In this document: positions 13,701 to 50,700 of the stretch, piece after piece
How positions within the stretch are numbered: position 1 is the stretch's first letter
Layout: each line of letters starts with the position of its first letter
Assembly: GCF_964213995.1 (NCBI RefSeq)
Contig: NC_135810.1
Coordinates: 118,854,001-118,918,000 of the forward strand
Reading direction: 5' to 3'
Origin: Mustelus asterias
Taxonomy: Eukaryota
Length of the DNA: 64,000 bases
The notes under the pieces: model-generated
The model's database searches: none
What the model saw: only the letters and a program-made list of their open reading frames with translations
Told to the model about the DNA's origin: nothing
Made by a program: the position numbers and the translations under genes

Positions 13701-13957
13701 GGCACTCCCTTGGTGCAGCACTCCCTCAGTGCCCCACTCCCTCAGTGCGGCACTCCCTCAGTGCAGCACTCCCTCAGTGCCCCACTCCCTCAGTGCTGCC
13801 CTCCCTCAGTGCGGCACTCCCTTGGTGCAGCACTCCCTCAGTGCCCCACTCCCTCAGTGCCCCACTCCCTCAGTGCTGCCCTCCCTCAGTGCTGCCCTCC
13901 CTCAGTGCAGCCCTCCCTCAGTGCCCCACTCCCTCAGTGCTGCCCTCCCTCAGTGCA
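10740..13957. repeat. 16-bp minisatellite, consensus GCNNCACTCCCTCAGT, ~200 units
   Basis: Tandem array seen directly. Degenerate at 10740-11680, homogeneous further right, with variants gcag/gcgg/gccc/gctgccc. Confidence 0.97.
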
Positions 13958-24880: not shown

Positions 24881-25381
24881 ATGGCGCACCAAGTTAAGAC
24901 ACCAGTGGAGATATTAGGGGATAAGTTCCCAGCCCTTAGGGGAGATATAGAACACGTCTCTAAAAAATGGGCCAAAAGAACAAATAAGAGCAATACACAG
25001 TGGCCGGAGGAAGGCACATGGTCCATAGAGAGGTGTGAGGACCAGAAGGGAATGATAAAGAACTATAAGATTAAGGATAAATCGAGCAAAAGAAGGGAAA
25101 AGCGAGAAAAGGAGTTAGAGATATTAGCCCTATTCCAACAAGAAGGGAAAGAGAGAAGAGGGGTATGGAGGGGAGGTAGAATGCAGATGCCAGTACAACT
25201 TGAGGAAAAAGCAAAATTGGAAGATCCAAACGTAGCCCCACCCCCATACTTAGAGAAACAGAGCTCCACGGGACTGTACCCAGTTATATCAGGCACAATG
25301 AATTTTGAGGGAGAATATGACATAGAACAGATGACGAAGGCGGGAAAGGCACCCACCTGTAAAGTTTCCAGATGTGGATAG
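24881..25381 (+). CDS. gag: Gag N-terminal part (matrix plus late domains), cut short by a frameshift
   Basis: WPEEGTW matrix-like motif, PPPY late domain (25238-25249) and LYPVI (LYPxL-like). Lies directly before the capsid ORF in a different frame. Confidence 0.85.
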   Translation: MAHQVKTPVEILGDKFPALRGDIEHVSKKWAKRTNKSNTQWPEEGTWSIERCEDQKGMIKNYKIKDKSSKRREKREKELEILALFQQEGKERRGVWRGGRMQMPVQLEEKAKLEDPNVAPPPYLEKQSSTGLYPVISGTMNFEGEYDIEQMTKAGKAPTCKVSRCG

Positions 25382-26573
25382 GAGAGGGAAAAGGGTATTC
25401 CCGGTGATTCTGAAGGGTGGCAGACCGCAGTATATCCCTTGGTCAGGTCAGGATTTGCCTAATTTAATTAATGAATTACCCAATATTTTGGATGGGGCTG
25501 GAAGGTGGATTGGACAGTTGGAGGCAGGGATGGTGGGAAAAAGGATGGCACTGGGCGACATCAAAGCTCTCCTGACAAAGGTGCTAGGAATGGACCAAAT
25601 GGCGGAAGTAATGAGATGTGCTGGCATCCCGACCGCAGCTTATAACCCAGCGGTGGATGGGATACTAATGGACCAGTACCGCCAAGACATCTGGCAGGCA
25701 CTGCGGGATATGTACCCCAATCGAATGGATGTAAAAACCCTAAAGGGAGAGCCACTGGGTGAGGAGGAGAATGCAGCTGTGTATGTGGAGAATCAATTAA
25801 AAAGGTGGAGAAGGGACACGGAGAGGGACATTCTAATAGACCCACTGACCAACTCCATGTTCCGGGCTGCAATCCTCGAGGGCTTGCCAGCCCCAGCTAA
25901 GACAAGGCTGGAGGAAGTGGTGGGCTTGGACTCAAAAAATTACCGAGAGTTTGTGGATTATGTTGCCCATGCAGTAGAGAGACATCGCAAAGATGAAAAG
26001 GATGCAGACAAACAGCTGAAGGAGGTACAACGTAAACTCCTTCAGGCACAGTTGGAGGAGATCAAAAGCAAGGATAAACTGAAGGCAAAAGAGGATCTCG
26101 CACCCAGAAAAATAGCACCAATGATGGTGGAGCAAAAGCCAGAGGAAATACCTGCACTAATCAAAGGGGGGAGCGGAGATGGAGGCCAGCCCGTCATAAC
26201 CTATAACATTTCTGCCTTCCCACTGTCCATGAACCCAGGAGCCTATGGCCTAAATTATCAAAACCCATACGCCCTGCAAAGTCAGACTGACTGGAATAGA
26301 AATGGGAAAGGACAGGGAGGTGGTAGGCCACCCTATCAGAATCAGAGAGGACAGGGACAGGTTAATCATCAGACTCCGAGACAGGGACCACTGCCTGGCC
26401 CTTCAGGTGTGTGTTGGGGGTGCGGGGAGGCAGGGCACATAAAAAGGAATTGCCCGCGGAATTTCCCCAGACAGGGAGAAAACCAGCAGCAGACAGGCCA
26501 ACAATTGATCCAAGGATCGCCAAACAGCATCCCGATGTTTCAAGGGCCGGTAAACCATCAGAATTCCCCATAG
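25335..26573 (+). CDS. gag: Gag C-terminal part (capsid, coiled coil, nucleocapsid zinc knuckle)
   Basis: Frame is open from 25335. YIPWSGQDL capsid start; CWGCGEAGHIKRNC = CX2CX4HX4C. Ends at a TAG in frame with pol. Confidence 0.9.
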   Translation, partial: RRRERHPPVKFPDVDRRGKRVFPVILKGGRPQYIPWSGQDLPNLINELPNILDGAGRWIGQLEAGMVGKRMALGDIKALLTKVLGMDQMAEVMRCAGIPTAAYNPAVDGILMDQYRQDIWQALRDMYPNRMDVKTLKGEPLGEEENAAVYVENQLKRWRRDTERDILIDPLTNSMFRAAILEGLPAPAKTRLEEVVGLDSKNYREFVDYVAHAVERHRKDEKDADKQLKEVQRKLLQAQLEEIKSKDKLKAKEDLAPRKIAPMMVEQKPEEIPALIKGGSGDGGQPVITYNISAFPLSMNPGAYGLNYQNPYALQSQTDWNRNGKGQGGGRPPYQNQRGQGQVNHQTPRQGPLPGPSGVCWGCGEAGHIKRNCPRNFPRQGENQQQTGQQLIQGSPNSIPMFQGPVNHQNSP

Positions 26574-29500
26574 GGAGGCCCAGAGAACCCCGAAATGGTA
26601 GGACAGTACGTACAGATAACAGAAACTGCAGAGCAGGAACCTATAGTTAACGTTAGAGTAGGAGGGATCGAGGTCCCCATGATGATAGACACCGGCGCCA
26701 CATGTACGTGCATGCAAACAAAATATGCGGATCACTTACCATTGTCAAACCAGTTTGTAAAAACTGTGGGGTTCTCGGGGAAAGTAACATTAGCTCGAAT
26801 GACGACGCCGGTGCCTGTTACCATTGGAAATAAGACAACCCATGTACCTATTTTAGTATGTGATAAAACTCCTTTAAATCTATTGGGAAGGGATGCAATC
26901 CTAGGTTTAGGACTGAAATTAGAATGCACTGAACAAGGAATTGATTTGATGGGAATGTATCCACTTGAAATACCAGGAAAGGAAGGGGTTAATGTATATT
27001 GGTTGGGAGATATAGAGGAACAAGTTAAAAAACAGATATGGGAAGTTTGGGGAAAGCTTATAAACACTTGGGTTCCACAAGCCAAATGGCCAAGAACAGA
27101 ATTACACAGTACAATGATATTTGATGAAGGGCAGGAACCTGAGATACAGGAGAAATGGGAAAGGGAGGCAGGACGAGAACAGGAAATAAAGTCAGGAAGT
27201 ATTTTAATCGGACTAGAGGGAGTAGCCCTCACAATTGTTAGGAATGAATGGGTTAACAAATGGTTCTCTGTATCTGGGGCGGAGCCACATGTCACATTGA
27301 AAGTGAATCCGGGATACAGATCAAAAGACCTAGGACCAATGGTGTTGAGAGCACAAGATTTAGAATTTGTCCAGACAGACAATGTAGATATTTGGACGTC
27401 CAGCAATGGACAAATGACGAAAATAATTTTGGATGTTAAAATGCTTGGGAAACCGAAGCACTTAACAATAGGAGTGCAAATCGAGAAACAGGAACTGGAG
27501 TGGAGAGAGAGGTTAGAGCAGGATTTGAACTCCCTCCCGCAGGAGTTGTGGTCCAGACAGGACACGGATGTAGGGAGGGTCAAAAACGCTAATCCAGTTG
27601 AAGTCAGATTAAAGATAGGACGTCAGGGACCGTATAGGCCGCAATACCCAATCAAGACAGAAGCAATTGAAGGAATTAGAGGGACAATTAAGGGATTGAT
27701 AGAAGCAGGGGTATTAAAAGAAACCCGGAGCAGGTGTAATACACCGCTACTACCAGTGAAAAAGGCGGACAGAGAAAAATGGAGATTGGTGCATGATCTA
27801 AGGGCAATTAATGAGGTAGTGGAAGATATGCCAGCAGAGGTTCCAAACCCTTATACCTTGATGACAAATATACCACCTGAAAGTAGATGGTTTACTGTAA
27901 TAGACCTATGTTCGGCATTTTTTAGTGTGCCACTAGCTCAAGAAAGTCAGTATCTCTTTGCATTTACGTACGAGGGGAAACAATACACATACAATAGGAT
28001 GCCCCAAGGATTTAAACATTCCCCACATGTATTCAATCAGGTGTTGAGAGCAGATTTAGAAGGAATACAGTTGGAAGGAACACTGATACAATATGTGGAT
28101 GATTTATTATTATGCACAGGAACACAAGAACAGTGCAGGAAGGATAGTTTAAAACTATTGGAAAGACTAGCAGAAGGGGGCCATAAAGTTTCCAGGAAAA
28201 AGCTGCAGCTGTGCCAGAAAAAGGTAGAATACTTGGGAAGAGAAATATCAGCAGGACAGAAGGAGATAGCTTCACAGCAAATAGAAGCAGTACTAAAAGT
28301 TCCGAAACCACGGACGGTGGGACAAATGATGACATTTTTGGGAATGACAGGATTCAGTTCAGAATGGGTGGAAAGATATGCCGAAAAAACGCAGGCACTA
28401 CGAAAGATAATGAAGGAGGCAGGGTGTGACGAATTAAAAGCCAAACTAAAATGGGATAAAGATGCTTCAGACGCATTTGAAAACGTGAAAAGAGAAATGG
28501 CACAGGCACCAGCATTGGCCTTACCGACCTATGACAAGCCCTTTGACTTATTTGTGAGTAACAGAGAAGCCGGATTTGCTACAGCAATGTTAATGCAGGA
28601 AAATTGCAAGGGTAGACGAAGGCAGGCTGTAGCATATTACAGTACCAAGCTAGACGACGTGGCAATGGGATACCCTCCGTGCTATCAAGGTCTGGCAGCA
28701 GCTTGGTGGGCGTACGAAAAGGCAGCTACGGTCACAATGGGATATCCGATAAACATACATGTATACCATAAGGTCGCTGAATTGATTGAGCAAGGAAAAT
28801 TTGTGCTGACACCTGCTAGGATCCATCATTATCGAATGCTAACCACATTTCCAGATATCACGATAATAAAGTGTAACAGAGTAAATCCAGCTGATTACAT
28901 GCCATTACCTCATGAAGGAGAAGAACATGAATGCTTAAGAGAAGCAAAAACATTTATGAAACTGAGAAAAGATTTAAGAGCAGAGGGACTAGTGACAGAA
29001 GGGAAAAGGATACTGTATGTAGATGGCTCATGTTACAGGGATCACTTAGGAAACCACGCAGGCTATGCCATAGTTGAACAGAAAGGGGAAACACTTGAAG
29101 TCATAGAAGCAGAGAAATGTGAACAGCCCTGTTCAGCCCAACTGGCAGAACTTAAAGCATTGACCAGAGCATGTGAGCTAGCAAACGGGGAAGCATTGGA
29201 AATTTATACTGATTCAGCCTATGCCCACGGGGTCTGCCATCTGTTCGGGGCAATATGGAAGCAAAGGGGATTTATGAAAAGCGGAGGAGGACCAATACAA
29301 CACGAAGGTCAAATCAGGGCTTTAATAAGGGCCATGATGGGTCCAAGGGAATTAGCCATAATTAAGTGTCAGGCGCATAAAAAGGGAGCAGACAGCATCA
29401 CACAGGGAAACACCAAAGCCGACAAGGCAGCTAAAGAAGCGTCAGGATGCATTGAGGCTACGATAGCCCCAGTAGAAATAGCAAGGCCGCACCCAGGGCC

Positions 29501-30947
29501 AGGTACGGGGGATATCGAACCTCACATCACATTAGAGGATGTAGCACAATTACAGGAGGAAACCTCCGTAGCTGAAAAGGCAATGTGGAAAGATAGAGGA
29601 GCACTACAGGGACAACAGGACAGGATATGGAGAAATGGGGAGGGATTAGTCATAGCACCCACATCATTACTAACCGTACTAATTAGCGAAGCGCATGGAG
29701 TGGACCACTGTGCGAGAGGAGAAGTGGCTAGAAAGATCAAGAAGGAAGGATTCTGGTCACCATACCTGCAAAACTCGATTGACTACATACTAAGTCAGTG
29801 TGAGGTGTGTGCTCAGAATAACATCAGGAAGGGCATTACTGCCCCAATAGGGCATATACCCATTCCTGAAGGACCATTTAAACATCTATGCATGGACTAT
29901 GTGGATATGGGAAAGGTGGTAAGAGGGAAAAGATACATGTTAGTGATTATTGATAGATTCAGCAGATGGATAGAAGCAACGCCATCCAAAGATCAAGGAT
30001 CTGGAACGGTGATTAACTTCCTGTCAAAAGAAATTATCCCAAGATTTGGCATACCCACGCAATTAAGTTCAGACAATGGATCTGCTTTTATAGGAAGGGC
30101 ACTGAGAGAGACACTCTCGGCACTCCGAGTAAAGCAGAAGTTTGGATGCGTATATCACCCTCAATCCCAAGGAATGGTGGAGAGAGCAAACGGGACCCTT
30201 AAGGCTAAAATAAGCAAAATTTGCAGTGAAACAGGGAAAAACTGGATAGATGCTCTGCCATTGGCTCTAATGCAATACAGGAGTCAGGAAAACAGAATCA
30301 CACATTTGAGCCCTCATGAAATGATGACAGGAAGAGTAATGCCGGTACCTAAGATCAGGGGATCAGGAGGTCCTACGCTAGAATGTTCAGATCAAAGCAC
30401 AAAAGAATATATACAACAATTAACTGTTATACATAGAACTATATTTGAACAGGAAAAAGCCAAGGAGGAGGAGAATCCGGTAACAGAACATCAGATCAAG
30501 CCTGGAGATCGAGTATACATCAGAAAGTTCCGGAGACGTTGGAACGAACCGAGACGAGAAGGACCGTTTGAAGTCACCAAAGTGTCTCCCACGGCTTTGC
30601 AAGTAGAAGGCAGTACACTGTGGTATCACTTGAACCATTGTACCAGAACGATACCAGGGGTGGGGGAGAGAAGGGAAATTGAAGAAGTACACAGAGTGGA
30701 TAGAGGTGATAGCGAGGAAGAAATAGAAATACACGGGGAGAATCGTGGGGAGGAGGAACAGGGCCAAGGAAGAACAAAAAGAATAGAGGATGATGAAAGT
30801 AGTTCTGTACATGAGCTGGCTGATGATACAAATGCCCAGCCTGAGCCTATTAGTCAAGGTGCCGAGGGAGGTGAGGACAGGGAAGGGGCCCCATTCCCCA
30901 CCTGGGAGTTGGAAACTATTTCCCTTAGGAACTTCCGTGACCCATAG
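26574..30947 (+). CDS. pol: Pro-Pol polyprotein: protease, 2H-phosphoesterase-like insert, RT, RNase H, integrase
   Basis: Uninterrupted 1450-aa ORF from the ATG at 26595, frame open from 26574. Motifs: IDTGA (PR); HST and HVT; MPQG and YVDD (RT); YVDGS, AELKA, YTDSAY (RNase H); H-H/CEVC zinc finger, D-D-E (MDYV, SDNG, MVER) and GPF (IN). Confidence 0.97.
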   Translation, partial: GGPENPEMVGQYVQITETAEQEPIVNVRVGGIEVPMMIDTGATCTCMQTKYADHLPLSNQFVKTVGFSGKVTLARMTTPVPVTIGNKTTHVPILVCDKTPLNLLGRDAILGLGLKLECTEQGIDLMGMYPLEIPGKEGVNVYWLGDIEEQVKKQIWEVWGKLINTWVPQAKWPRTELHSTMIFDEGQEPEIQEKWEREAGREQEIKSGSILIGLEGVALTIVRNEWVNKWFSVSGAEPHVTLKVNPGYRSKDLGPMVLRAQDLEFVQTDNVDIWTSSNGQMTKIILDVKMLGKPKHLTIGVQIEKQELEWRERLEQDLNSLPQELWSRQDTDVGRVKNANPVEVRLKIGRQGPYRPQYPIKTEAIEGIRGTIKGLIEAGVLKETRSRCNTPLLPVKKADREKWRLVHDLRAINEVVEDMPAEVPNPYTLMTNIPPESRWFTVIDLCSAFFSVPLAQESQYLFAFTYEGKQYTYNRMPQGFKHSPHVFNQVLRADLEGIQLEGTLIQYVDDLLLCTGTQEQCRKDSLKLLERLAEGGHKVSRKKLQLCQKKVEYLGREISAGQKEIASQQIEAVLKVPKPRTVGQMMTFLGMTGFSSEWVERYAEKTQALRKIMKEAGCDELKAKLKWDKDASDAFENVKREMAQAPALALPTYDKPFDLFVSNREAGFATAMLMQENCKGRRRQAVAYYSTKLDDVAMGYPPCYQGLAAAWWAYEKAATVTMGYPINIHVYHKVAELIEQGKFVLTPARIHHYRMLTTFPDITIIKCNRVNPADYMPLPHEGEEHECLREAKTFMKLRKDLRAEGLVTEGKRILYVDGSCYRDHLGNHAGYAIVEQKGETLEVIEAEKCEQPCSAQLAELKALTRACELANGEALEIYTDSAYAHGVCHLFGAIWKQRGFMKSGGGPIQHEGQIRALIRAMMGPRELAIIKCQAHKKGADSITQGNTKADKAAKEASGCIEATIAPVEIARPHPGPGTGDIEPHITLEDVAQLQEETSVAEKAMWKDRGALQGQQDRIWRNGEGLVIAPTSLLTVLISEAHGVDHCARGEVARKIKKEGFWSPYLQNSIDYILSQCEVCAQNNIRKGITAPIGHIPIPEGPFKHLCMDYVDMGKVVRGKRYMLVIIDRFSRWIEATPSKDQGSGTVINFLSKEIIPRFGIPTQLSSDNGSAFIGRALRETLSALRVKQKFGCVYHPQSQGMVERANGTLKAKISKICSETGKNWIDALPLALMQYRSQENRITHLSPHEMMTGRVMPVPKIRGSGGPTLECSDQSTKEYIQQLTVIHRTIFEQEKAKEEENPVTEHQIKPGDRVYIRKFRRRWNEPRREGPFEVTKVSPTALQVEGSTLWYHLNHCTRTIPGVGERREIEEVHRVDRGDSEEEIEIHGENRGEEEQGQGRTKRIEDDESSSVHELADDTNAQPEPISQGAEGGEDREGAPFPTWELETISLRNFRDP

Positions 30948-32508
30948 AAAAGGAGAATGGGATACAGAAGACATAAGGGTGCAAAATCAGGAAGATAGAG
31001 TATTAAGACGAACAAAACGTGAACGATTAGTGAGCACAAATACTATTTGGGAAAAAGCGCAGAAAAACAAATGGTGGAAATGGGCTGAGTATACAGGTCA
31101 GAGAAACAGTGATGGGAAAGAGTGTGTAGTATGTGCATCAGAGAAACCTAACACCCAAGTAACTGATATACCATGGGGATCAGGAGACTGTAGAACCAGG
31201 AAACAAAGCTGGAGAAAGGAAAATTGCCGTCCATATACCACATATATAAGGTATCATATGATAGGGAATCGGAACTACTCGTATGAGAATATAGACTGTT
31301 CCGGATCCGCATGTGATAACCTTTGTAAAGGTGAGCCGCCGTTGTGTCAATACCACTGCATCCTGTTTGCTGGGGTAAAAAAGGGCATCTACAACTTGAC
31401 CCACAGATGTCCAAAGTGGCCAAAAACGGCAGTGGACGCGGTCCCAAAGGAATGGAGTGTAGAGCCCAACTTACAAATCCGAGATTGCTATTGGAGGGAA
31501 AGTAGCACAGGAAGTAGTGTGGGAAATTACACAGGAGAGTGTGAAAGGATTTGGAATATAACCGATGCTCTTTATCTGATCCTCTCAGGAGGGGGATGGG
31601 CACCCCCTCCTTTTGTGTTAGACTATCAAGAAAATCAACTGGCCGATCTCTGGTGGCTTTGTGGCCCGGAGAAAGGGCTATTGGCAAAATTACCACAGAA
31701 TTGGAAAGGACTATGTGCTCGAGTTATGCTTGCCCAGAGCATTGTGATACTACCGGGGGAAAGAGAAATTAAATCACAAAGAATTAAGAGGGCATATACC
31801 CCTGACCCTACGATAAAATTGGACGCAATCGGACAGCCCCGCGGCATCCCGAATGAGTTCAAAGCTAGGAACGAAATAGCTGCAGGGTTTGAATCCCTCT
31901 TTGTTTGGATCACACCCAGCAAGAATACTGAGTGGATCAATTACATCTATTATAATCAGCAGAGGTTTATTAATTATACGAATGATGCCCTGGAGGCCTT
32001 AGGAGAGCAGTTGGATGCGACCAGCAAAATGGCGTGGCAAAATCGACAGGCGTTAGATTGGCTCCTGGCAGAGAAAGGAGGGGTGTGTGTTATGTTTGGG
32101 GATCAGTGCTGCACATTTATCCCTAATAACACTAATCCAGAGGGGTCATTTACACAAGCCATGAATAAGTTAAGAAATCTTAAGAAAGAAGTGAAAGAAA
32201 ATGCTGGGTTTGGGCATGAGGTATGGAGTTGGCTGGACAGAATATTAGGAAGATGGGGGGTGTGGTTTGCCAAAGCTGGAGCTGTAGCAATCGCAACAAT
32301 AATCATTCTGGGACTGATATTTTGTTGTTTTTTACCCGCCCTGAGATCCTTCCTTACCAGAGTGGCAGCGCGGCAGATGGTGACGCGGGTGCTAAGCAGC
32401 TCACGCTCGAGAGAAAAAACAGAGGAATGGGAAAATCTTGAGCCGCCCCCGCTGAGTGGATTCACAATGACCTTGGTCGAAGTTGAAACTCGTCACTCTG
32501 TAAAATAA
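30790..32508 (+). CDS. env: Envelope glycoprotein, gamma-type, 572 aa
   Basis: Hydrophobic N-terminus; furin sites RRTKR (31006-31020) and RIKR (31780-31791); CVVC (CXXC); ISD WQNRQALDWLLAEKGGVC; CX6CC (CVMFGDQCC); TM helix AVAIATIIILGLIFCCFL. Overlaps the pol 3' end by 158 nt. Confidence 0.95.
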   Translation: MMKVVLYMSWLMIQMPSLSLLVKVPREVRTGKGPHSPPGSWKLFPLGTSVTHRKGEWDTEDIRVQNQEDRVLRRTKRERLVSTNTIWEKAQKNKWWKWAEYTGQRNSDGKECVVCASEKPNTQVTDIPWGSGDCRTRKQSWRKENCRPYTTYIRYHMIGNRNYSYENIDCSGSACDNLCKGEPPLCQYHCILFAGVKKGIYNLTHRCPKWPKTAVDAVPKEWSVEPNLQIRDCYWRESSTGSSVGNYTGECERIWNITDALYLILSGGGWAPPPFVLDYQENQLADLWWLCGPEKGLLAKLPQNWKGLCARVMLAQSIVILPGEREIKSQRIKRAYTPDPTIKLDAIGQPRGIPNEFKARNEIAAGFESLFVWITPSKNTEWINYIYYNQQRFINYTNDALEALGEQLDATSKMAWQNRQALDWLLAEKGGVCVMFGDQCCTFIPNNTNPEGSFTQAMNKLRNLKKEVKENAGFGHEVWSWLDRILGRWGVWFAKAGAVAIATIIILGLIFCCFLPALRSFLTRVAARQMVTRVLSSSRSREKTEEWENLEPPPLSGFTMTLVEVETRHSVK

Positions 32509-37800: not shown

Positions 37801-40800
37801 GCTGGTTTCTCAACACAACGAGCTCATCGCAATGTGGATCTGAATGCTATGTTTTCTTCACTTGCCCCTGTCCCTCTCTCCTTCTCCCCCCACCGCCCGC
37901 ACATCGCTTCAATGAGCCTCTGAAACCTCCTTAATTGCATCGTGCCACCAAAGAATAACAGTCAAGTTTCACCATCCCAGCCCCCCCCCCCGTGCCAAAC
38001 CATAGTTCAAGAGGAGGACAAGGCTGATAAAATCAGTTTCAGATCTCAGCCGTCGAGACAAGTAATCTTATCAGATTTTCCCTTTCGCACAAGTCATTTT
38101 AAGATTCCTGTTTTTTTTGAAGTACGGTTAAAAGCTGAGTAACAACGGTAATGTGCAGAGGCTTTCGGCAGTCCGCGACTGACTGCTCTTTATTTTTTTG
38201 AGATTTGGCTGACGCTGGCAAGGCCACGTTCATCGACCGTTCTTTGTTTGCCCCTAACAGGGGTAGGGGTTGGCGGGTCTTCCTTCCCTTGGAGGTGATG
38301 GTACCCCCTTCACGACGACGGTGGAGGGGGGGGGTTTGAGTGGGCATCCAGCTTTGGGATAATCCAAGGTAGGTAGTCTGCCTTTTACCATTAAAAATCG
38401 GAGGAGCTGGAAAGCCGGTCAGCATTTGGAAAGGGAGGAAAATGTGGGTTAGTGCATGAGGTGGTGGGGGGAGGGGGCGGGAGAATCCGAGGAGGGAAGC
38501 TTTGCGACAGAAATGAAAAGCAGCAGAGGATGGGAGAACAGGCCAGTAACTGATTGGACTACACATTCTGAAGAAATTTGGAATTTTTTACCACCTGGAG
38601 CAGTTGGAGTGGGGTCCAGAGGGGCAATTTCTGCACACAGAGGGTGTAGAGTGTCTGGAACGAGCTGCCAGAGGTAGTAGTAGAGGTGGGTACAATTTTG
38701 TCTTTTGAAAAAACATTTAGACAGTTACATGGGTAAGATGGGTATAGAGGGATATGGGCCAAATGCGGACAATTGGTATTAGCTTAGTGGTAAAAACTGG
38801 GCGGCATGGATAAGTTGGGCTGAAAGGCCTGTTTCCATGCTGTAAACCTCTATGACTCTATCGGTCCTATCCTCATAACCACGCGTATTTTAGCCCACCA
38901 ATCCCTCTAAACTATATCTATTTTTGGACACTAAGGGGCAATTTACCATGACCAATCCACCTAACCCGCACATCTTTGGAGTGCGGGAGGAAACCGGAGC
39001 AAACCCATGCAGACACGGGGAGAACATGCAAACTCCACACAAGCAGCGACCCAAGGCTGGAATTGAACCCGGGTCCTCGGCAGTAGTGTTATCCACCGTG
39101 CCGCCCTAGTTATTAAATTATTGGACATAACAGTGGTTTTGTGGGTGGGGTGGGGGCGTTAGTTGGAGGATAGGCCCCCTTGCCCCCTCCCCTGCCCCAT
39201 AAACCTCTAAGGAGACAGTTAGCCAGTTTGTATCATTAAAGGCGCACTTAAATTCCATTTTAGGGGAGTCACCAGCATTTAGCCAATAGAAGCGGGGGGA
39301 GAGCTCCACGTCACCTAAGCTGGCCACCAGCTTCATGGATGAATGACTTCCCTGCGACAACTCAGGGGTCCATCAGTGCTGAAGACTCAATGGCTCACTA
39401 CTAGTTGGTTCATAAATAATGATGTGGAGATGCCGGCGTTGGACTGGGGTGGGCACAGTAAGAAGTCTCACAACACCAGGTTAAAGTCCCAACAGGTTTA
39501 TTTGGAATCACGAGCTTTCGGAGCACTGCTCCTTCATCATAAATACGTAAGAGAAATCTAACAATCTTCAATCAGCAAGCAATGTCTTTCAAAAATGTTG
39601 CCAATTGTCTCCTAAAAGGAAAAGTAACCAATGACATTCCTTTAAAATTTTGACTTAAAGCTCATTCCTTTGTCATTTTGGTGTTTTAGTCCAACATATG
39701 CAACTAAAAATTTAACTTATAAATACAGCGTGAGAGTGCCTCATTCACACTTGGTGAGGGGGGAATGGGGAGAGGGAGGGAGCGGAAAGGGGTAAAAAGG
39801 GGGTGGGTGACAGCCAGGAATAACTTCCAGGTTCCCAACCCAAAATTCAGCCCAGTGTTGGGGTCGGATACGGGAATTAAAATTCAACCTAATCTGAGGG
39901 TCAACGGTTAGAAAACAAACATTACACATTCAGGAGTGAGGCAGTTGATGGCACAGAGGAGCGTAGACGCTGAGTGTAATCTATTGTTAATGCACCACGA
40001 TACGGATTCAATCGGATTACATCACCCACCAAAGGGCAGCTAAAAGTGTGATTGATTCTTCTGAAATAGCCCAGCAAGCCATTCAATTCAGGGCAATTAG
40101 GAATGGACAACAAATGCAGGCCTAGCCAGCGGCACCCACATCCCATAAACAAATTTCTAAAAAGTGCTTTCCGGCCAATTAGGTGCTTTTTGAAGTGTTG
40201 TAATTCAAAAATGGTGGCAGCCAATTATCACACAGTAAATTCCCACAAACAGCCACATGATAATGGCCAGATAAGCTGTTTTTGATTGAGGTTTTTTAAT
40301 TATTCATTCATGGGACATGGGCGTCGCTGACTTGCCAGCATTTATTGCCCATCCCTAGTTGCCCGAGGGCAGTCGAGAGTCAACCACATTGCTGTGGCTC
40401 TGGAGTCACATGTAGGCCAGACTAGGTAAGGACGGCAGATTTCCTTCCCTAAAGGACATGAGTGAACCAGAGGGATTTTTCCAACAAGCGACAATGGTTT
40501 CATGGCCATCAGTACATACTTAATTCCAGTTTTTTTAAAAATTGAAATTCCACCATGGCAGGATTCGAACCCGGGTCCCCAGAACATTGGCTGAGATTCT
40601 GAATTAATAGTCTAGCAATAACACCATTAGGCCATCGCCTCCCCAACATTAATTGGGAGAACTCCTGAAATAATGACATGGGAGCTTTTACATCCACCCA
40701 AACTGGCAGATGGAGCCTTTGTTTAATATCTTACCCTAAAGACACAACCTCCAACAATTGCTACTAAACATGCTAAGCATTTCCTGTTTTTATCTTCAGT

Positions 40801-40974
40801 GAACTCCCTCGCTCTGTTAGAGAGTTAGTGCCATGGGTTCTTTTACGATCCACCCGATAGGGAAGACTGATCGACTGTCAGTATTGACCATTCTAATGGT
40901 AGCACCTCTAACAGTGCAGCAGTCCATCGGTATCAGATTCTGTGCTCAATGCTCTAAATAGGACTTGAACCCAC

Positions 40975-41657
40975 AACTGGTACACTACCAGCCACAGCCA
41001 TCTCTCCCGCTCTCTTGCCCCTGCAGGGAAGTGTAATCTGTGGCTGGTAGTGTACCAGTGATGGTGTCTCCCTTTACAGGCCCAGCTTGGTCCTTCTCCA
41101 GTGTCTCCTCTTGGACTTGTACTGATCTTGCAGCCGGTTTTCATGCGGATCCACTGTGGAATCAGCCGGTTCTGCTTCACCTTTTTAGCGAGGAACCGCT
41201 TCATCCTGCAGGTTTTGTGGGATGGCATGGCCGCGCGTCCACTCCGGCAGGAGGGATTCATTCCTCTGGTGGGGAGGAGGGATCGCCCGCAGAGTGGCGG
41301 CAGACCCCCCTGCCCCCTCCCTCCTCGCCGATCGGCCGCAGACTGGCAGAGGACACCTCCCCCGACCAGAGGATGATCTGGGTCCCACCCCCACACCCCT
41401 CGTCCAAACCTGGCACCACCCCCCACCCCCCCCCCCCCCCCCCCCCCACCCCCCCACCAACCAGAAGATGGCCTGGGTCAGAGAGCCGTTGCAGGCTCTG
41501 AGCCCGCTCTTCGGAAGCTGCAGCGACAACTTCAGACTTTTATTTACCAGGTCGTTAAAAGCGCGGATCCGGATCGGGCCAGAAGACGGTGAAGTGGGAT
41601 TTGGTGGTAGAGTTGGGCACGCCGTTCGTTAAGTTGATTTAAATGCATGCATTTAAG
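40975..41657. mobile_element. Second, left-truncated copy of the RPL39 foldback element
   Basis: Same central hairpin (cactaccagccacag...ctgtggctggtagtg) and same right flank (gggtcagagagccgttgcag...gatttaaatgca) as the 47-kb copy. Confidence 0.7.
41074..41228 (-). pseudogene. RPL39: RPL39 retrocopy, full CDS with a 1-nt deletion, inside a foldback repeat
   Basis: [35 protein letters not shown], then after the frameshift [15 protein letters not shown]. 155 nt versus the expected 156; no introns. Confidence 0.93.
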
Positions 41658-41670
41658 GCAGATATCCACT

Positions 41671-41707
41671 CCATCTGACGAAGGAGCAGCGCTCCGAAAG
41701 CTAATGG
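41671..41707 (+). ncRNA. Minimal type I hammerhead ribozyme motif (representative intact copy)
   Basis: CCAT-CTGACGA-a-GGAGC-agc-GCTCC-GAAA-GCT-A-ATGG: full catalytic core, stem I CCAT/ATGG, stem II 5 bp, palindromic AGCT in place of stem III. Confidence 0.75.
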
Positions 41708-41957
41708 CATTTGCTACCAAATAAGCCTGTTGGACTTTAACCTGGTGTTGTTAAAACTCTTACTGTGTTTACCCCAGTCCAACGCCAGCATCTCCACATC
41801 ATGACTTCTATGGCCAAGCCAGTTCTGTACCCATCTAGCTAGTTCAAACTTGATCCCCGATGTTTCAGCTGCCCATTCAGGTGTATATAAGTCACACCCA
41901 CTGCAGTAATCGAAGGTTAGAGAGTCCTCCTGAGGTCCCAGCCAACATTCTGCCCTC

Positions 41958-44918
41958 AGGCAACACCAATAGGGTTGTTGTAGTGGGAGACTTCAATTTC
42001 CCTGGTATAGACTGGAAATCGCTGAGAGCTGGGACTCTGAATGGGGAAGAATTTGTAAAATGTGTACAGGAGGGTTCTTTGGAACAATATGTAGATAGCC
42101 CGACTAGAGAGGGGGCTATACTGGACCTAGTACTGGGGAATGAGCCCGGTCAGGTCTTCAAAGTCTCGGTAGGGGAACATGTGGCAAATAGTGACCACAA
42201 TTCTGTTAGCTTTAGGATAGTGATGGAAAAGGATGAGTGGTGTCCCAAGGGTAAGGTGCTGGATTGGGGGAAGGCTAACTTTAGTGGAATTAGGCAGAAA
42301 TTGGCAGCTCTTGATTGGGAGAGGCTGTTTGAGGGTAAATCCACATCTGGCATGTGGGAGTCTTTTAAGGAACAGTTGTTAGGGCTGCAGGACAGGCATG
42401 TGCCTGTAAAAAAGAAGGATAAGAAGGGTAGGATTCGAGAACCGTGGATAACCAGGGAAATTGAGGGACTGGTCAAAAAGAAAAGAGAGGCGTATGTTAG
42501 GTCCAGGCAGCTAAAAACGGAGGGAGCTCTGGAGGAGTACAAAGAAAGTAGGAAAGAACTCAAACGGGGAATTAGAAGGGCAAAAAGGGGTCACAAAATG
42601 TCCTTGGCAGACAGGATTAAGGAGAATCCCAAGGCATTTTATTCATACGTTAGGAACAAAAGGGTTGTCAGGGAAAAAATCGGACCTCTCAGGGACAAAA
42701 GTGGGGAATTATGCTTGGAGCCCAAAGAAGTAGGGGAGATCCTAAATGAATACTTTGCGTCGGTATTCACAAAGGAGAGGGATATGTTGACTGGGAGTGT
42801 CTCGGAGGGGAGTGTTGAACCGTTGGAGAAAATCTCCATTACAAGGGAGGAAGTGTTAGGTTTGTTAGAGAATATAAAGACTGACAAATCCCCAGGGCCT
42901 GATGGAATCTATCCAAGGCTGCTCAGGGAGACGAGAGATGAAATCGCTGGGCCTCTGACGCAAATCTTTGTCTCGTCACTGGACGCAGGTGAAGTCCCAG
43001 AGGATTGGAGGATAGCTAATGTGGTCCCATTATTTAAGAAGGGAAGGAAGGATAACCCAGGTAATTATAGGCCAGTGAGCTTGACGTCCGTGGTGGGGAA
43101 GTTGTTGGAGAAGATTCTTAGAGATAGGATGTATGCGCATTTAGAAAGGAATAAACTCATTAACGATAGTCAGCATGGTTTTGTGAGAGGGAGGTCATGC
43201 CTCACTAGCCTGGTGGAGTTTTTTGAAGAAGTGACCAGAATGGTTGACGAGGGAAGGGCCGTGGATGTCGTCTATATGGACTTTAGTAAAGCGTTTGACA
43301 AAGTCCCTCATGGTAGGCTGGTAAAAAAGGTTGGATCTCATGGGATAAAGGGGGAGGTAGCTAGATGGGTGGAGAACTGGCTTGGTCACAGAACAGTAAG
43401 AAGTCTCACAACACCAGGTTAAAGTCCAACAGGTTTATTTGGTAGCAAATACCATAAGCTTTCGGAGCAATGCTAAACCTATCTAAACCGGGATGTTGGA
43501 TTTATGTCACATTATCAGTAACCCCCACAGCTTGCCTCCTGGACTTGCACAATTTCACAAGCTGTACTGTCTGGAGACAATACACATCTCTTTAACCTGT
43601 GTTGAATGCTCCCTCCACCCACATTGTCTGTACATTTAAGACCTGGCTGGCTGTAGAGATTTGCATTCTAATCAGTATTCTGTAATTTGATTTCTGTGTC
43701 TGTGCCCTGTTTGAGAACAGAGACCACTCCATCTGACAAAGGAGCATTGCTCCGAAAGCTTATGGTATTTGCTACCAAATAAACCTGTTGGACTTTAACC
43801 TGGTGTTGTGAGACTTCTTACTGTGCTTACCCCAGTCCAACGCCGGCATCTCCACATCTTGGTCACAGAAGACAGAGGGTGGTAGTGGAAGGGTCTTTTT
43901 CCGGCTGGAGGCCTGTGACTAGTGGTGTTCCGCAGGGCTCTGTATTGGGACCTCTGCTGTTTGTGATTTATATAAACGATCTGGAAGAAGGTGTAACTGG
44001 GGTGATCAGTAAGTTTGCGGACGACACAAAATTGGCAGGACTTGCAGATAGTGAGGAGCATTGTCAGAAGCTACAGAAGGATATAGATAGGCTGGAAATT
44101 TGGGCAAAGAAATGGCAGATGGAGTTCAATCCTGATCAATGCGAAATGATGCATTTTGGTAGAAATAATGTAGGGAGGAGCTATACGATAAATGGCAGAA
44201 CCATAAAGGGTGTAGATACGCAGAGGGACCTGGGTGTGCAAGTCCACAGATCCTTGAAGGTGACGTCACAGGTGGAGAAGGTGGTGAATAAGGCATATGG
44301 CATGCTTGCCTTTATAGGACGGGGCATAGAGTATAAAAGTTGGGGTCTGATGTTGCAGATGTATAGAACGTTGGTTCGGCCGCATTTGGAATACTGCGTC
44401 CAGTTCTGGACGCCACACTACCAGAAGGACGTGGAGGCTTTGGAGAGAGTACAGAGGAGGTTTACCAGGATGTTGCCTGGTATGGAGGGGCTTAGTTATG
44501 AGGAGAGATTGGGTAAACTGGGGTTGTTCTCCCTGGAAAGACGGAGGATGAGGGGAGACTTAATAGAGGTTTATAAAATTATGAAAGGCATAGATAGGGT
44601 GAACGATGGGAAGCTTTTTCCCAGGTCGGTGGTGACGTTCACGAGGGGTCATAGGTTCAAGGTGAAGGGGGGGAGGTTTAACACAGATATCAGAAGGACA
44701 TATTTTACACAGAGGGTGGTGGGGGCCTGGAATGCGCTGCCAGGCAAGGTAGTGGAGGCGGACACACTGGGAACATTTAAGACTTATCTAGATAGCCATA
44801 TGAACGGAGTGGGAATGGAGGGATACAAAAGAATGGTCTAGTTTGGACCAGGGAGCGGCGCGGGCTTGGAGGGCCGAAGGGCCTGTTCCTGTGCTGTATT
44901 GTTCTTTGTTCTTTGTTC
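41958..44918 (+). mobile_element. Long young CR1 LINE (ORF2 from within the endonuclease to the 3' tail), split by a Penelope insertion
   Basis: VVGDFNFP and SDH (APE endonuclease); NYRPVSLTSV, GVPQGSVLGP and FADD (RT). No stops apart from the insertion; (gttcttt)n tail. Confidence 0.95.
43394..43857. mobile_element. Penelope-derived inverted element
   Basis: 13-bp TSD CTTGGTCACAGAA (43381-43393, 43858-43870); LNRDVGFMSHYQ* EN tail; inverted termini. Confidence 0.9.
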
Positions 44919-44940
44919 AATAAACCGGAGTACTAGTTTT

Positions 44941-45053
44941 TAAGTTTAGCTAGTTTAGCTCTGACGAAGGGTCATCCAGACTTGAAACGTTGGCTCTATT
45001 CTCTCTCCTGATGCTGTCAGACCTGCTGAGATTTTCCACCATTTTCCATTTTT
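44941..45053 (+). mobile_element. 113-bp element with a minimal hammerhead ribozyme motif
   Basis: 11-bp TSD GTACTAGTTTT; agct-CTGACGA-a-GGGTC-atcca-GACTT-GAAA-CGT-T-ggct. Confidence 0.7.
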
Positions 45054-46677
45054 GTACTAGTTTTAAAATGTGGGAGGAACATGGGTTCAAATCTCACTGG
45101 TAGAATTTAAATTGAACTAATAAATCTGGAATTGAAAACTAGTCTCAGTGATGGTGACCATAGAACCATCATCGATTATTGTGAAAGGTTCACTAATGCT
45201 CCTTTAGGGAAGGAAATCTGCTGTCCTTACCTGGTCTGGCCTACATCAGACTCCAGAGCCATAGCAATGTGGTTGACATTTAACTGCCCTCTGAAATGGC
45301 CGAGCAAATCATTCAATTCAAGGGGCAATTAGGGATGGGCAACCAATGTCGGCCCACCCAGCGACACCCACATCCCGTGAAAGAGTTTTTAAAAAGTGGT
45401 CAGTTCATAAAATAGATTTTTGCTAAGCTATGCGTTGAGTGAAAATCTGTCAGCACTTTTATTACATAACAATTACTGACTCCTTTTCAGAAGGTATAGG
45501 ACATTGGTTTAAGTTAAAAGGGCAAAAAGAATTAATGGGAACCTGAGGAGCAACTTTTTTACACAGAGGGTAAAGTTTTAAAGTAAAGTTTATTTATTAG
45601 TGTCACCAGTAGGCTTACATTAACATTGCAATGAAGTTAGTGTGAAAATCCCCTAGTCGCCACATTCCGGCACCTGTTCGGGTACACTGAGGGAGAATTT
45701 AGCATGGCCAATGCACCCTAGCCAGCACGTCTTTCAGACTGTGGGAGGAAACCAGAGCACCCGGAGGAAACCCACGCAGACACGGGGAGAATGTGCAGAC
45801 TCCGCACAGACAGTGACCCAAACCGGGAATCGAACCCAGGCCCCTGGAGCTGTGAGGCAGCAGTGCTAACCACTGTGCTGCCCAACAGTGGTACATTTGT
45901 GGAATGAGCTGCCGGAGGAAGGGGTTGAGGCAGGGACATTGGCAACATGTAAAGGGCATTTGGACAGATACATGGATAGGAAAGGTTTAGAGGGATATGG
46001 GCCAAATGCAGGCAAATGGGGTTAGTTGAGACGGGCATTTTGGTCGGCGTGGACCAATTTGGGCCGAAGGGCCTGTCTCCGTGCCATTGATTCTATGATT
46101 CTATGGTAGTTCCTCAGTTGTGCAACTCTTTGTGAAGTTCTGAGAACATGGATAAAAGCAGATTATCAAATCACTCCCTGATCTTGCATCATGCCCATTC
46201 AGAAAGCAAAGGGGAGAAACTATGGGTGAAATGAAGAAAAAGGTTTTCAAAGTGATTGTCATATTTTGCAGAACAAAACCGATTTTTTTCTCTTATTGTT
46301 GACGCCTCTCTACTCACAGGAAGCTTCCTGCTAATCTGATTGAATCCGTATCACAGTGCATGTTGTGGTTAACAATAGATTAGACTCAGTGTCTACGCTC
46401 CTCTGTGCCATCAACTGCCACACTCCTGAATGTGTAATGTTTGTTTCCTAACCGTTGACCTCCAGATTAGGCTGAAATTTAGTTCCCATGTCCGACTCCA
46501 ACATTGGGCTGAATTTTGGGTTGGGAACCTGGAAGTTGTTCCTGGCTGTCGCCTGCCCCCCTTCACCCCTTCCTCCTCCCTCTCCCTCCCCGTTCCCCCC
46601 TCATCAAGCTTTTCGAATCCCACAAGCAGGATTTTCCGGCCGCAAAACGGGAAAATCCCGCCCAAGGTCAACACATG

Positions 46678-47790
46678 GGGGGGGAGTTTTACCATTTTGA
46701 GTCTAAGTGCCGAATCTGGGCGTCAAATAGATCCGAGCCTGGAATCTCCTCTTTCCAGCGCGCCCATACCCGTTTTGCCAGCTCCAGCCCGATCCGTGCC
46801 GTGGGCGGGGCTTAGCGCTGCCAGGACTGATCGGAGCTCTGAACTGCGCGTGCGCAGCTCGAAAAAAATCTGACAGCGTGCCCGGGCGCGAAAAAAAAAG
46901 CAGAAAGCGGGGAGAGCGGCTCTCTGACGTTCATCCTCTGGTCGGGGGGGAGGGGGGGGGGGGGTACGGGTGTGACCGAGCATCCCCTGCGGTGAGGAGG
47001 AGAGGGGGTGTGACGTCTCATCCTCTGGTCGGGGGGGGGTGGGTCCGCTGCCAGTCTGCGGCCGATGCCTCCTCCCGGAGTGGACGTGCGGCCATGCCAT
47101 CCCACGAGACCTTCAGGATGAAGCGATTCCTCGCTAAGAAGATGAAGCAGAACCGGCCGATTTCACAGTGGCCGATTCCACAGTGTTAAGGGATACACCA
47201 TCACTGGGACACTACCAGCCACAGCCATCTCTCCCGCTCTCTTAGCCCTACAGGGAAGAGTAATCTGTGGCTGGTAGTGAACCAGTGATGGTGCCAGGAG
47301 GGATCAGCCACAGACAGGCAGCGGAACCCCCCCCCGACCAAAGGATGAGACGTCACACCCCCTCTCCTCCCACCCCGCCCCCCGGGGATGAGATGTCACA
47401 CCCCCTCCCACCCCCCCCCCTCCCCAGGGGATGTGACGTCACACCCCCTGTTCTCCTCCCACCTCCCTCCCGCCCCGACCTGAGGATGGCCTGGGTCAGA
47501 GAGCCGTTGCAGTCTCTGACCCCGCTCTTCGGAGGCTGCAGCGGCGACTTCAGACTTTTATTTTGCAGGTCGGTAACAGCGCGGACGCGGATCGAGCCAG
47601 AAGACGGTAAAGTGGGACTTGGCGGTAGAGTTGGGCGCGCGGTTCATTAAGTCGATTTAAATGCAGGCAAATGCATTTAAATCGTCGGGCCGCCCGATTC
47701 GGGCGCGAGCCAGACCCACACCCGAATCGGGTGTCGGTAAAGGCGCGATCTGCTCGGATTCGGGCGCGAAGTTTTGGTAAAATCAGGCCC
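46678..47790. mobile_element. GC-rich non-autonomous foldback/MITE-like element carrying RPL39
   Basis: Imperfect terminal IRs (ggggagttttacca / tggtaaaatcaggccc). Long internal inverted arms (~46915-47225 vs ~47265-47510) around a ~40-nt loop. Right part matches 41340-41655 in the same orientation. Confidence 0.65.
47094..47189 (+). pseudogene. RPL39: RPL39 retrocopy fragment (N-terminal half) inside a foldback repeat
   Basis: [26 protein letters not shown], then a short duplication and loss of the C-terminal half. Shares upstream sequence (ggagtggacgYgcggccATG) and downstream sequence with the 41-kb copy. Confidence 0.88.
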
Positions 47791-50700
47791 ATGGTCTGCT
47801 CCCAGCCTTCTATGATTCCCGTGGCGGGCGGGACAGGAAAATTCCCCCCACGCCAGCCATACTGGCCAGAATTCTACCACCCCGCTTGTCACAGAATCGG
47901 CATGGACGAGGATCCAACAACGGGAATCTCCGTTGACCTCAGGCGGGAACTTCCGGTCTCGCCCGAGCGAGACTGTAAAATCCAGCCCACTGTGCCAAAT
48001 AGGGGCAACATGGTAATGTCACTAGACTAGACACCCAGAGGTTCAGGCTAATGCTCCAGGGACATGGACTCAAACCTCACCACGGAATTGAAAGCTAGTC
48101 TTTGTCATGATGATCCTGAAAATACCATGAATTGTTGTAAAAACCCATCTGGTTCACTAATGTCCTTTAGAGAAGGAAATCTGCCATCCATATGGCTCTG
48201 GAGTCACATGTAGGCCAGACCATGTAAGGACAGCAGATTTCCTTCCCTTAAGGGCGTTAGTGAACCAGCTGGGCTTTTCCAACAATCGACAATGGTTATC
48301 AGTAGATTCTTAATTCCAGATTTTTTTTATTGAATTCAAATTCCACCATCTGTTGTGGCGGGATTCGAACCCGGGTCCCCAGAACATTAGCTGAGTTCCT
48401 GGATTAATAGTCTAGCAATAATACCACTAGGTATCCCCTATCCTAAAATATAAATATAAGATTGTCACCCAGAGATCCACTGAGAATTCAGCAGAAACTT
48501 CTTTACCCAAAGAGTGGTGAGAAAATTGAACTCACTTGCACAGGGAGTGGCTGAGATAAATAGTATAGATGTATTATAGGGGACAAGAATATGAGAATGA
48601 AGGGAATAGAGGGTTAGATTCAGCTGAGGAAGAAGACCAGTGTTTATGCTGCACAGCATGGTGACACAGTGGTTAGCGCTGCTGCCTCACAGCACAAGAG
48701 ACCCGGGTTCAATTCCTGGCTTGGGTCACTGTCTGTGCGGAGTCTGCACCTTCTCCCTGTGTCTGCTTGGCTTCCTCCGGGTGCTCCGGTTTCCTCCTAC
48801 ACTCCAAAAACATGCCGGTTAGGTGTATTGGCCATGCTAAATTGCCCCTTAGTGTCAGGGGGTTAGTAGGGTAAATAAGTGGGGTTATGGGGATAGGGCC
48901 TTGGTGGGATTGTGATAGGTGCAGACTCGATGGGCTGAATGGCCTCCTTCTGCACTGTAGAGATTCTATGAATCTCCATTTGAGAATCCTCCCATCTTTT
49001 CTCATCTAAATCTACCATCGCCACTCTCCATTCCTCTCTTCCTCAGGCCTTTATCGAGTTTCTCCTTAAATGCATCTTTGCCATTGGCTTTTAAAGTTTA
49101 TTTATTATTTATTCATCACAAGTAAGGCTTACATTAACGCTGCAATGAAGTTACTGTGAAATTCCCCTAGTCGCCACAGTCCGGCGCCTGTTCGGGTCAA
49201 TGCACCTAACCAGCACATCTTTCAGACTGTGGGAGGAAACCGGAGCACCCGGAGGAAACCCACACAGACACGAGGAGAACGTGCAAACTCCACACAGACA
49301 GTGACCCAAGCCGGGAATCGAACCCAAGTCCCTAGTGCTGTGAGGCAACAGTGCTAACCACTGTGCCACCATGCCGCTCTCAGCTACTCCTGTGACAGTC
49401 AGTTCCAATGGAGGAAATGTTTGATCATTGAGTATTTCCCTGCCTTACAACAGCGACTATCGTTCAAGTATCTCTTTAGTTAAACAGAGCTTTCGGACAG
49501 TCTGAAGCCATGAAAGACAGTATATAAACACAGGGCGGAATGGACAAGTTGGGCCGAAGGGCCTGTTTCCATGCTGTAAACCTCGATGACTCTACATTTG
49601 ACCTTAATTAAAGTCGCTGCTGCTGTACAAATGCTGAAAAACCTGTCGTAGTTTGACCATTGTGGTAAGGTCCATCCCATCACTCGGAGGTTTCATGCCA
49701 GCAATGTTACGTGTGGTGGGAAGTGGGGAGGAGAGAAGAGATGTTTCACCATGATGCTTTGGGCCAGCGTGACAGCCGGACAGGATTGAGAGGCCTACTT
49801 CTCATTTCCTGACCAATCAATCATATGTCCATATCTAACGGACAACTGTAAAGCACCCCAGCCAGGATAATTGAGCCTAGTTCAGCACGGGCAGAAATTG
49901 GGCCTTCAAGCTCTCTGTAGTTCATGGGCATTGTGTGAAAGGCAAAACAGAAACAACAACAAGCCAAGAAAACTGGTGCAAGCACAAGAATATAACTTTC
50001 GTTTCCTGAGCACAAGTTAGGCCTCTGAACAGAACAAGCACTGCTTTGTTCCAAAGCACCATTGGGGCAAATTTATGGATGGGTTTACATAGAAACAAAT
50101 AAACTAGAAGCAGGAGTAGGCCATTCGGCCCTTCGAGCCTGCTCCGCCATTCATTTTGATCATGGCTGATCATCAAATTCAATATCCTGATTCCCCCCTT
50201 CCCCTCAAGTACCTTGATTCCTTTAACCCCAGGAGCTATATCTAATTTCTTCTTGAAATCAGGTAACGTTTTGGCCTCAACTACTTTCTGTGGCAGTGAA
50301 TTCCACACATTCATCACCCTCTGGGTGAAGAAATTTCTCCTCACCTCAGTTCTAAAAGGTTTACCCCTTATCCTCAAACTATGACCCCTAGTTCTGGACT
50401 CCCCCCACCATTGGGAACATTCTTTCTGAATCTACCCTGTCTAGCCCTGTTTGAATTTTATACGTTTCTATGAGATCCCCTCTCACTCTTCTAAATGCCA
50501 GTGAATGTAATTCTAAACGGTTTAGTCTCTCCTCATATGCCAGACCTGCCATCCCAGGAATCATTTGACCATTTGAATATGAATGAGGCATTTTTTAAAT
50601 GTATTTATCAGTTCAATTTTTAGGTGTGTATGTTTGACTAAGAAACCAAGGTGACAAATGAATGTGCTTTACATAGAAATTTTAAAGAAATGTTATTGGC

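Follow-up and report, generated by a model that had tools for sequence, protein, structure and literature searches.

How did coding sequence of the ribosomal protein gene RPL39 come to stand in the inverted arms of a dispersed repeat in a shark? The question is raised by a stretch of 64,000 nucleotides (nt) of Mustelus asterias (assembly GCF_964213995.1, contig NC_135810.1, positions 118,854,001 to 118,918,000 of the forward strand), which is called the window here. A reading made from the letters of the window alone had noticed two copies of one GC-rich element with the same loop and right flank, and alignment bears this out: the loop and stem are common to 40976-41066 and 47203-47293 (93% over 91 nt) and the right flank to 41435-41651 and 47455-47669 (86%). 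Both copies belong to a non-autonomous family of PIF/Harbinger DNA transposons. It is very probable that they represent a retrocopy nested in a DNA transposon, that is, that both are worn copies with an intron-free RPL39 palindrome as their core, and that entry as complementary DNA (cDNA), spread in trans and recombination between the arms are the likely steps behind them.

The nature of the cargo follows from comparison with the host gene, which has two introns and lies at G000:C14:8582784-8590214. Exon 1 ends at 8582829, exon 2 spans 8584567-8584670 and exon 3 starts at 8589993; the encoded protein has exactly the sequence of P0121, an eL39 shared by several sharks and a skate. The gene was located via exon 3, as two exon-2 patterns had zero matches in the genome because intron 2 starts with GTAC and the protein reads KKMKQ. 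The cargo (mRNA nt 27-275) comprises the final 20 nt of exon 1, the whole of exon 2 and the part of exon 3 that runs to mRNA nt 275. Both introns are precisely missing, so the cargo is a processed copy and not the Pack-type capture of genomic DNA that the sequence-only reading had proposed. The exon 1-2 and exon 2-3 junctions are spliced exactly in family B, a sister family with one RPL39 arm, and in the two-arm family A with a later 1-nt loss at the second junction. The loop of about 40 nt is not transposon sequence but RPL39 3' untranslated region (UTR), mRNA nt 236-275, and hence also cargo. A foreign source, which had been put forward for checking, is ruled out by the 98-99% match to the host gene. 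Over nt 27-203 the family B majority sequence has 1 site that departs from the host; over nt 30-235 family A arms have 5, among them the 1-nt deletion found in 80 of the 80 arms of 40 two-arm copies. A single capture is the simplest reading because all families have one common 5' breakpoint. Loss of the introns through DNA microhomology was considered and rejected: AGGTACAA flanks intron 2, but intron 1 is gone as an exact splice product. With regard to the host gene itself, intron 2 has AGGTACAA at both ends (8584663-8584678 and 8589991-8589998, G000:C14), an 8-nt direct repeat across the splice sites, and its donor, GTACAAG, is non-standard-looking.

The carrier is identified by its ends. 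The family has terminal inverted repeats (TIRs) of 16 bp, GGGCCYGATTTTACCA, and a later subfamily has a variant at one end. An exact 3-bp target site duplication (TSD) was found in 45 of 61 copies with two standard TIRs (shuffled mean 3.1, maximum 11), and 55 of the 61 have one within one mismatch, while an exact 4-bp TSD occurs in 0 of the 61. The insertion target is palindromic, ASAC-WNW-GTST. Ends like those of miniature inverted-repeat elements had been anticipated from the window, and TIRs with a fixed TSD length are indeed what the family copies have. In the accessible part of PMC9179366, PIF/Harbinger elements are described with a 3-bp TSD, TIRs, a DDE transposase and a Myb/SANT-like frame. 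The shark family is like the non-autonomous elements of that account in its 3-bp TSD, its TIRs and a partner with a DDE transposase, and unlike the Harbingers described there in its TIR length (16 bp against 25-50 bp) and its retro-derived palindromic cargo. A genome search with PF13359 gave 10,689 candidates, of which the best 150 were scored and 20 of those extended to 10 kb. Many of these 20 transposase loci share end sequence with the family. L155 (5,764 bp) and L156 (5,511 bp) closely share both ends with it (for L155, 90% across the opening 311 nt of family B). Both carry a DDE_Tnp_4 transposase (E 2e-39 and 5e-35). The family would then have been mobilised in trans by the transposase of related full-length Harbingers. 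The state of these two relatives speaks less well for this: each transposase is broken over two frames, and the Myb/SANT match on the opposite strand of L155 is weak (PF13873, E 0.01, 16 bits, under the 21.7 cut-off). The 10,689 candidates, with long open frames in many of the top matches, are in themselves a very large Harbinger load for a vertebrate.

The two window copies show what time has done to such elements. In copy 1 (40976-41651), the loop and a single antisense arm survive, but neither end does. Antisense RPL39 had been reported at 41074-41228, and it is there (155 nt), frameshifted after codon 35 by the 1-nt deletion of the family. Copy 2 is a complete element, 46678-47790, with ATG on either side. 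Its sense RPL39 does start at 47094 as described, but its extent is narrower: the arm holds mRNA nt 27-121 (5' UTR and 26 codons), followed by a short duplication and a deletion and then nt 195-275. The features, with position, strand and content, are as follows.

40977 to 41037, + strand: copy 1, RPL39 3' UTR, mRNA nt 215-275 (sense-arm stub and 40-nt loop), 97% to the host spliced model
41038 to 41250, - strand: copy 1, fold-back arm, mRNA nt 22-235 (5' UTR, coding part 41074-41228 with the 1-nt deletion, 3' UTR), 93% to host, 1 gap
41251 to 41651, no strand: copy 1, GC-rich inner arm with subterminal Harbinger sequence; neither TIR remains
41658 to 41805, + strand: dispersed repeat that truncates copy 1, presumably a Penelope-like end; about ten further copies in the window
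41854 to 44841, + strand: unrelated remnant of a long interspersed nuclear element (LINE) between the copies, with endonuclease and reverse transcriptase frames (Pfam RVT_1, Exo_endo_phos_2)
46675 to 46677, no strand: copy 2, left target duplication ATG; the flanks ACAC-ATG-GTCT fit the family target
46678 to 46694, + strand: copy 2, left TIR, variant GGGGGGA(A/G)TTTTACCA type, one extra G
46695 to 47076, no strand: copy 2, subterminal sequence and GC-rich inner arm
47077 to 47171, + strand: copy 2, RPL39 mRNA nt 27-121 (5' UTR, ATG at 47094, 26 codons), exon 1-2 junction spliced, 96% to host
47184 to 47264, + strand: copy 2, RPL39 mRNA nt 195-275 (stop codon region, 3' UTR, loop)
47265 to 47293, - strand: copy 2, fold-back arm remnant, mRNA nt 207-235, up to the family C deletion junction
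47294 to 47774, no strand: copy 2, GC-rich inner arm and subterminal Harbinger sequence
47775 to 47790, - strand: copy 2, right TIR TGGTAAAATCAGGCCC
47791 to 47793, no strand: copy 2, right target duplication ATG

The left-TIR variant of copy 2 is also present in 22 examined loci, two of these being one place. An Rfam scan of window positions 39000-50000 gave zero matches.

How far has the element spread? A search of the genome (3.68 Gb) with copy 1 gave 1,543 candidates; the best 40 were scored and 30 loci fetched. Most of the 30 have long internal inverted repeats with RPL39 in each arm, in a set ranked by score, and because of this ranking the copies were counted by whole-genome pattern matches, for which reversed-pattern controls gave 0 matches in every count. 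The fold-back junction is present at no fewer than 2,188 loci, that is, at least 2,188. Family A arms with the frameshifted exon 2-3 junction number 1,459, family C arms, in which the coding part is deleted, number 2,031, and the family B junction was found at at least 49 loci. A lower bound of at least 315 loci have exact 10-nt RPL39 stop-codon ends in both arms, and full copies are thus the long hairpin with two tail-to-tail RPL39 coding sequences that had been postulated for a dispersed family. The lack of the coding segment in the right arm of copy 2 had also been noticed, and its junction (gatggtg, then ccaggaggga) is the one that recurs in the 2,031 arms, so that it is not a local accident. 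The two-arm form is now a minority. Among the first 30 exact junction matches on contig C1, an unranked set, both coding arms are nearly whole in 3 copies and the C deletion is in both arms of 10. Most copies of the family have lost one or both coding arms. The copies are 2-3% from the majority sequence. In family B the second RPL39 arm is replaced by a 620-nt AT-rich insert of degenerate 27-nt repeats (L052:2085-2700). A genome search with this insert gave 67 candidates, of which the best 40 scored are all full-length matches at 94-100%; its source was not found, with no match elsewhere among the examined loci, and it could be a second captured piece.

These counts bear on an explanation in which the loci arose independently as ordinary processed pseudogenes or just two loci were locally rearranged. 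The cargo is spliced, as such an origin would have it, and retrocopies of ribosomal protein mRNAs are common. However, thousands of loci have their 5' breakpoint, fold-back junction and frameshift in common, together with TIRs and 3-bp TSDs, and this leaves the explanation next to no probability. The statement that these are not ordinary processed pseudogenes therefore stands as far as the shared junctions, TIRs and TSDs are concerned and fails in that the cargo is nonetheless a processed, intron-free copy. Nor did the family turn out to be confined to two loci, to lack two-arm copies or to carry a poly(A) tail and retro-type TSD copy by copy, the three outcomes that the sequence-only reading had named in advance as telling against it.

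How did a spliced copy enter a cut-and-paste transposon? Probably cDNA made by a LINE was inserted into, or repaired into, a Harbinger derivative, in what was likely a single entry. Transposase-bearing relatives hold the sequence directly outside the 5' junction of the cargo, as do the RPL39-free relatives L150, L153 and L158, and a further one, L151, has similar inner arms. At the junction itself there is a short inverted copy of that neighbouring transposon sequence and then the RPL39 UTR, which looks like a repair-type joint. This joint also lends itself to a different account, in which an RPL39 retrocopy that already existed was captured at the DNA level, in the manner of Pack-TIRs (host sequence carried between TIRs), by gap repair or fork switching, with all later steps the same. 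An inverted transposon copy is what template-switching repair may be expected to leave, neither poly(A) nor a long TSD is seen, and a free, older RPL39 retrocopy does exist. This retrocopy (L053 / L080:2545-2839, G000:C13) has exons 2 and 3 joined and a long 3' UTR, and has no exon 1 and no TIRs. At 83% to the host it is far too diverged to be the donor of a cargo that is 98-99% host-like; outside the element, only it and the host gene are found among 36 exact exon-3 pattern matches. Donor-flank sequence is absent at the 5' junction, where transposon sequence reaches the UTR. Capture of an earlier retrocopy is for these reasons unlikely, though it is the strongest of the alternatives, and the two routes are not separable because the fold-back has replaced the 3' end of the cargo.

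For the nested cDNA copy, the next step would be the folding of the cargo on its own 3' UTR, probably by snap-back priming. Within the host 3' UTR, nt 236-246 and nt 264-277 form an imperfect inverted repeat, and it is there that the arm turns; a broken end at this repeat could anneal and then prime back along the cargo. The RPL39-free relative L151 (L151:1-1164) has family-B-like ends and mirrored inner arms of its own, and the lineage is therefore prone to fold-backs. Three observations do not fit this account of entry and folding as well as they might: poly(A) and a retro-type TSD were not seen in the family copies examined, in which the cargo 3' end is replaced by the fold-back; no exact empty site was seen among the loci examined; and the actual fold-back junction lacks two bases that a perfect snap-back product would have, and has one base substituted.

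Once folded, the arms likely recombined with each other, as the stepwise mutations and the deletion stand in both arms and the loop occurs either way round. Arm haplotypes form a ladder from host CAAGC through GAAGC, GAAGG and GAA-G to GAT-G, with 6 arms of host type, 16 of GAA-G and 72 of GAT-G. The later changes post-date the fold-back because L046 already has the loop, inverted, yet both arms have them. In family C, too, the deletion is mirrored, and window copy 2 and L116 are one-sided intermediates. Across 40 two-arm copies, both arms carry an identical derived base in 23 cases, where deranged pairs give 6.9; for rare non-CpG changes the figures are 7 and 0.27. Loop orientation is 36:35 in 71 copies, and either orientation occurs within family C. 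On a tree built from one unique end, 19 orientation changes are needed, against a shuffled mean of 24 (14 of 500 shuffles needed 19 or fewer), and well-supported branches force at least 6 flips. On these grounds, conversion and crossover between arms probably took place in active lineages. Other data pull the opposite way. The two middle rungs of the ladder are one copy each (L046 and L096), the strict test on rare changes rests on 5 of the 40 copies, and the loop tree is star-like and poorly resolved, with 36 of 68 branches open. The arms also aged mostly independently, because the distance within a copy (3.6%) is only slightly below that between copies (4.0%). Polishing artefacts could explain some of the single-copy cases but not the family-wide ones.

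Does the hairpin matter to the host? The computed fold of a two-arm copy is an almost perfect duplex some 290 bp long (-630 kcal/mol, z -54). With both strands counted, such copies have a median of 173 perfect 21-mers in common with the host RPL39 mRNA. Cross-silencing of RPL39 by hairpin RNA is possible in principle. Sequence contigs compared with a two-arm copy gave one 234-nt family-type contig in set X1, 78 short ones in X2, none in X3 and dense coverage in X4, and one X2 contig runs across the fold-back junction as a perfect match; that X1-X3 are RNA is a guess, carry-over of DNA from a high-copy repeat is possible, and the comparison has no host-gene control. From such a hairpin it could be argued that copies are transcribed into small interfering RNAs (siRNAs) or Piwi-interacting RNAs (piRNAs) against the RPL39 mRNA, and that the cargo shields the element or that a cost to the host drove the loss of coding arms. 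The duplex and its 21-mers would suit this, C-type arms (2,031) exceed A-type arms (1,459), and there are precedents in Au76/Rangap1 (PMC6223193) and in an epigenetic conflict in maize (10.1101/777037), as far as the accessible parts of these papers go. Instability of palindromes and an advantage of short elements would, however, explain the deletions without selection, the hairpin of C elements still includes some 70 nt of RPL39 3' UTR, and the sister family of 49 copies, which has no long hairpin, kept its coding arm. An explanation through small RNAs is accordingly improbable. It is just as doubtful that the folded copy serves as camouflage, such that silencing its hundreds of hairpins would also hit RPL39. 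If it did, the course from open frame to frameshift to coding-arm deletion on both sides would record an epigenetic conflict between a transposon and its vertebrate host, and arm-to-arm conversion would be the engine that keeps the duplex perfect.

The RPL39 cargo is instead read as a passenger. It would be selfish and have no host function; deletion derivatives now outnumber whole arms. The 51-codon frame of family B is open in 26 of 37 single-arm copies, two of the 37 being A-line types, and none of the 37 equals the host protein. Three copy-encoded proteins had no match in an exact-match protein collection. The open frames are as youth alone allows. The one figure that sits uneasily with a passenger is the amino-acid-changing share of family B, which is 0.65 where the rough neutral estimate is 0.73 (p 0.036), a marginal result from a sample selected by RPL39 pattern.

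The closest known cases come from bats. Thomas et al. (PMC4224331), in the text available, describe four retrogenes nested in Myotis Helitrons, with 118 copies in total and RPLP0 among them, and call this the first such report for any DNA transposon. Like HelibatN424/RPLP0, the shark family is a spliced ribosomal protein mRNA copy in a DNA transposon that was multiplied, with some frames open. The bat elements move by rolling circle, have poly(A), TSDs and empty sites, and reach 118 copies over the four cases, six of them with RPLP0; the shark family is a cut-and-paste Harbinger with a palindromic cargo, at least 2,188 loci, probable arm recombination and no poly(A) seen. The animal Pack-TIR survey of Tan et al. 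(PMC8277862) reports, in its accessible part, that 4 of 370 Pack-TIRs were multicopy cases; captures without introns were removed from it by rule. The shark element has host sequence between TIRs and a separate parental locus (G000:C14), and its separate TSDs show repeated transposition, all as in Pack-TIRs. Its captured piece is not genomic DNA, both introns being absent. The Pack-TIRs of that survey are mostly hAT and Tc1/mariner, with an example of three transpositions, and the survey's main text, as accessible, never uses the terms Harbinger, PIF or shark. The Au76 pseudogene of mouse Rangap1 likewise has pseudogene sequence able to form double-stranded RNA homologous to the parent mRNA. 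Au76, as described in the available part of a review (PMC6223193), is a single locus with demonstrated Dicer-dependent siRNAs, whereas the shark family is mobile and high-copy, and its double-stranded RNA is hypothetical. Foldback elements and genomic palindromes have long inverted arms around a loop, arm homogenisation and loop inversion. In the shark family the palindrome is internal cargo instead, and the true termini are short TIRs whose subterminal sequences are unlike each other. No RPL39- or retrocopy-bearing Harbinger was found in the literature covered, which left most subscription papers and Repbase/Dfam outside its scope, where an unnamed consensus may exist. The accessible main text of a 244-genome retrocopy preprint (10.64898/2026.06.26.734816) mentions neither RPL39 nor DNA transposons, and a plant review (PMC13317346) added nothing further on retrocopy-bearing elements in the part available.

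Here, a TIR DNA transposon has amplified a spliced copy of a host mRNA to thousands of loci in a vertebrate. Such amplification was otherwise found described only in bat Helitrons, at far fewer copies, and the main animal Pack-TIR survey excluded the class. Palindrome genetics also gains a natural data set from the family, with hundreds of arm pairs of 250-500 bp, a known parent, a mutation ladder and an invertible loop, from which rates of arm conversion and inversion are measurable. The idea of conflict after gene capture, derived from plants, becomes testable in a vertebrate germline. In practice, the copies can make RPL39 gene counts too high and read mapping ambiguous.

Three other features of the window were seen. 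Inside the LINE remnant, at 43393-43861, lies a head-to-head pair of what we take to be Penelope-like repeats, with 85-nt arms that are 99% complementary. A GC-rich stretch (60-68%) at 10662-14129 has overlapping long frames on the + strand, two of which gave no Pfam match when scanned, and is probably a tandem repeat. At 25335-32508 (+) there is a retrovirus-like element with three long frames, which hold a zinc knuckle, a protease-RT-RNase H-integrase array (MLVIN_C) and a TLV_coat envelope domain.

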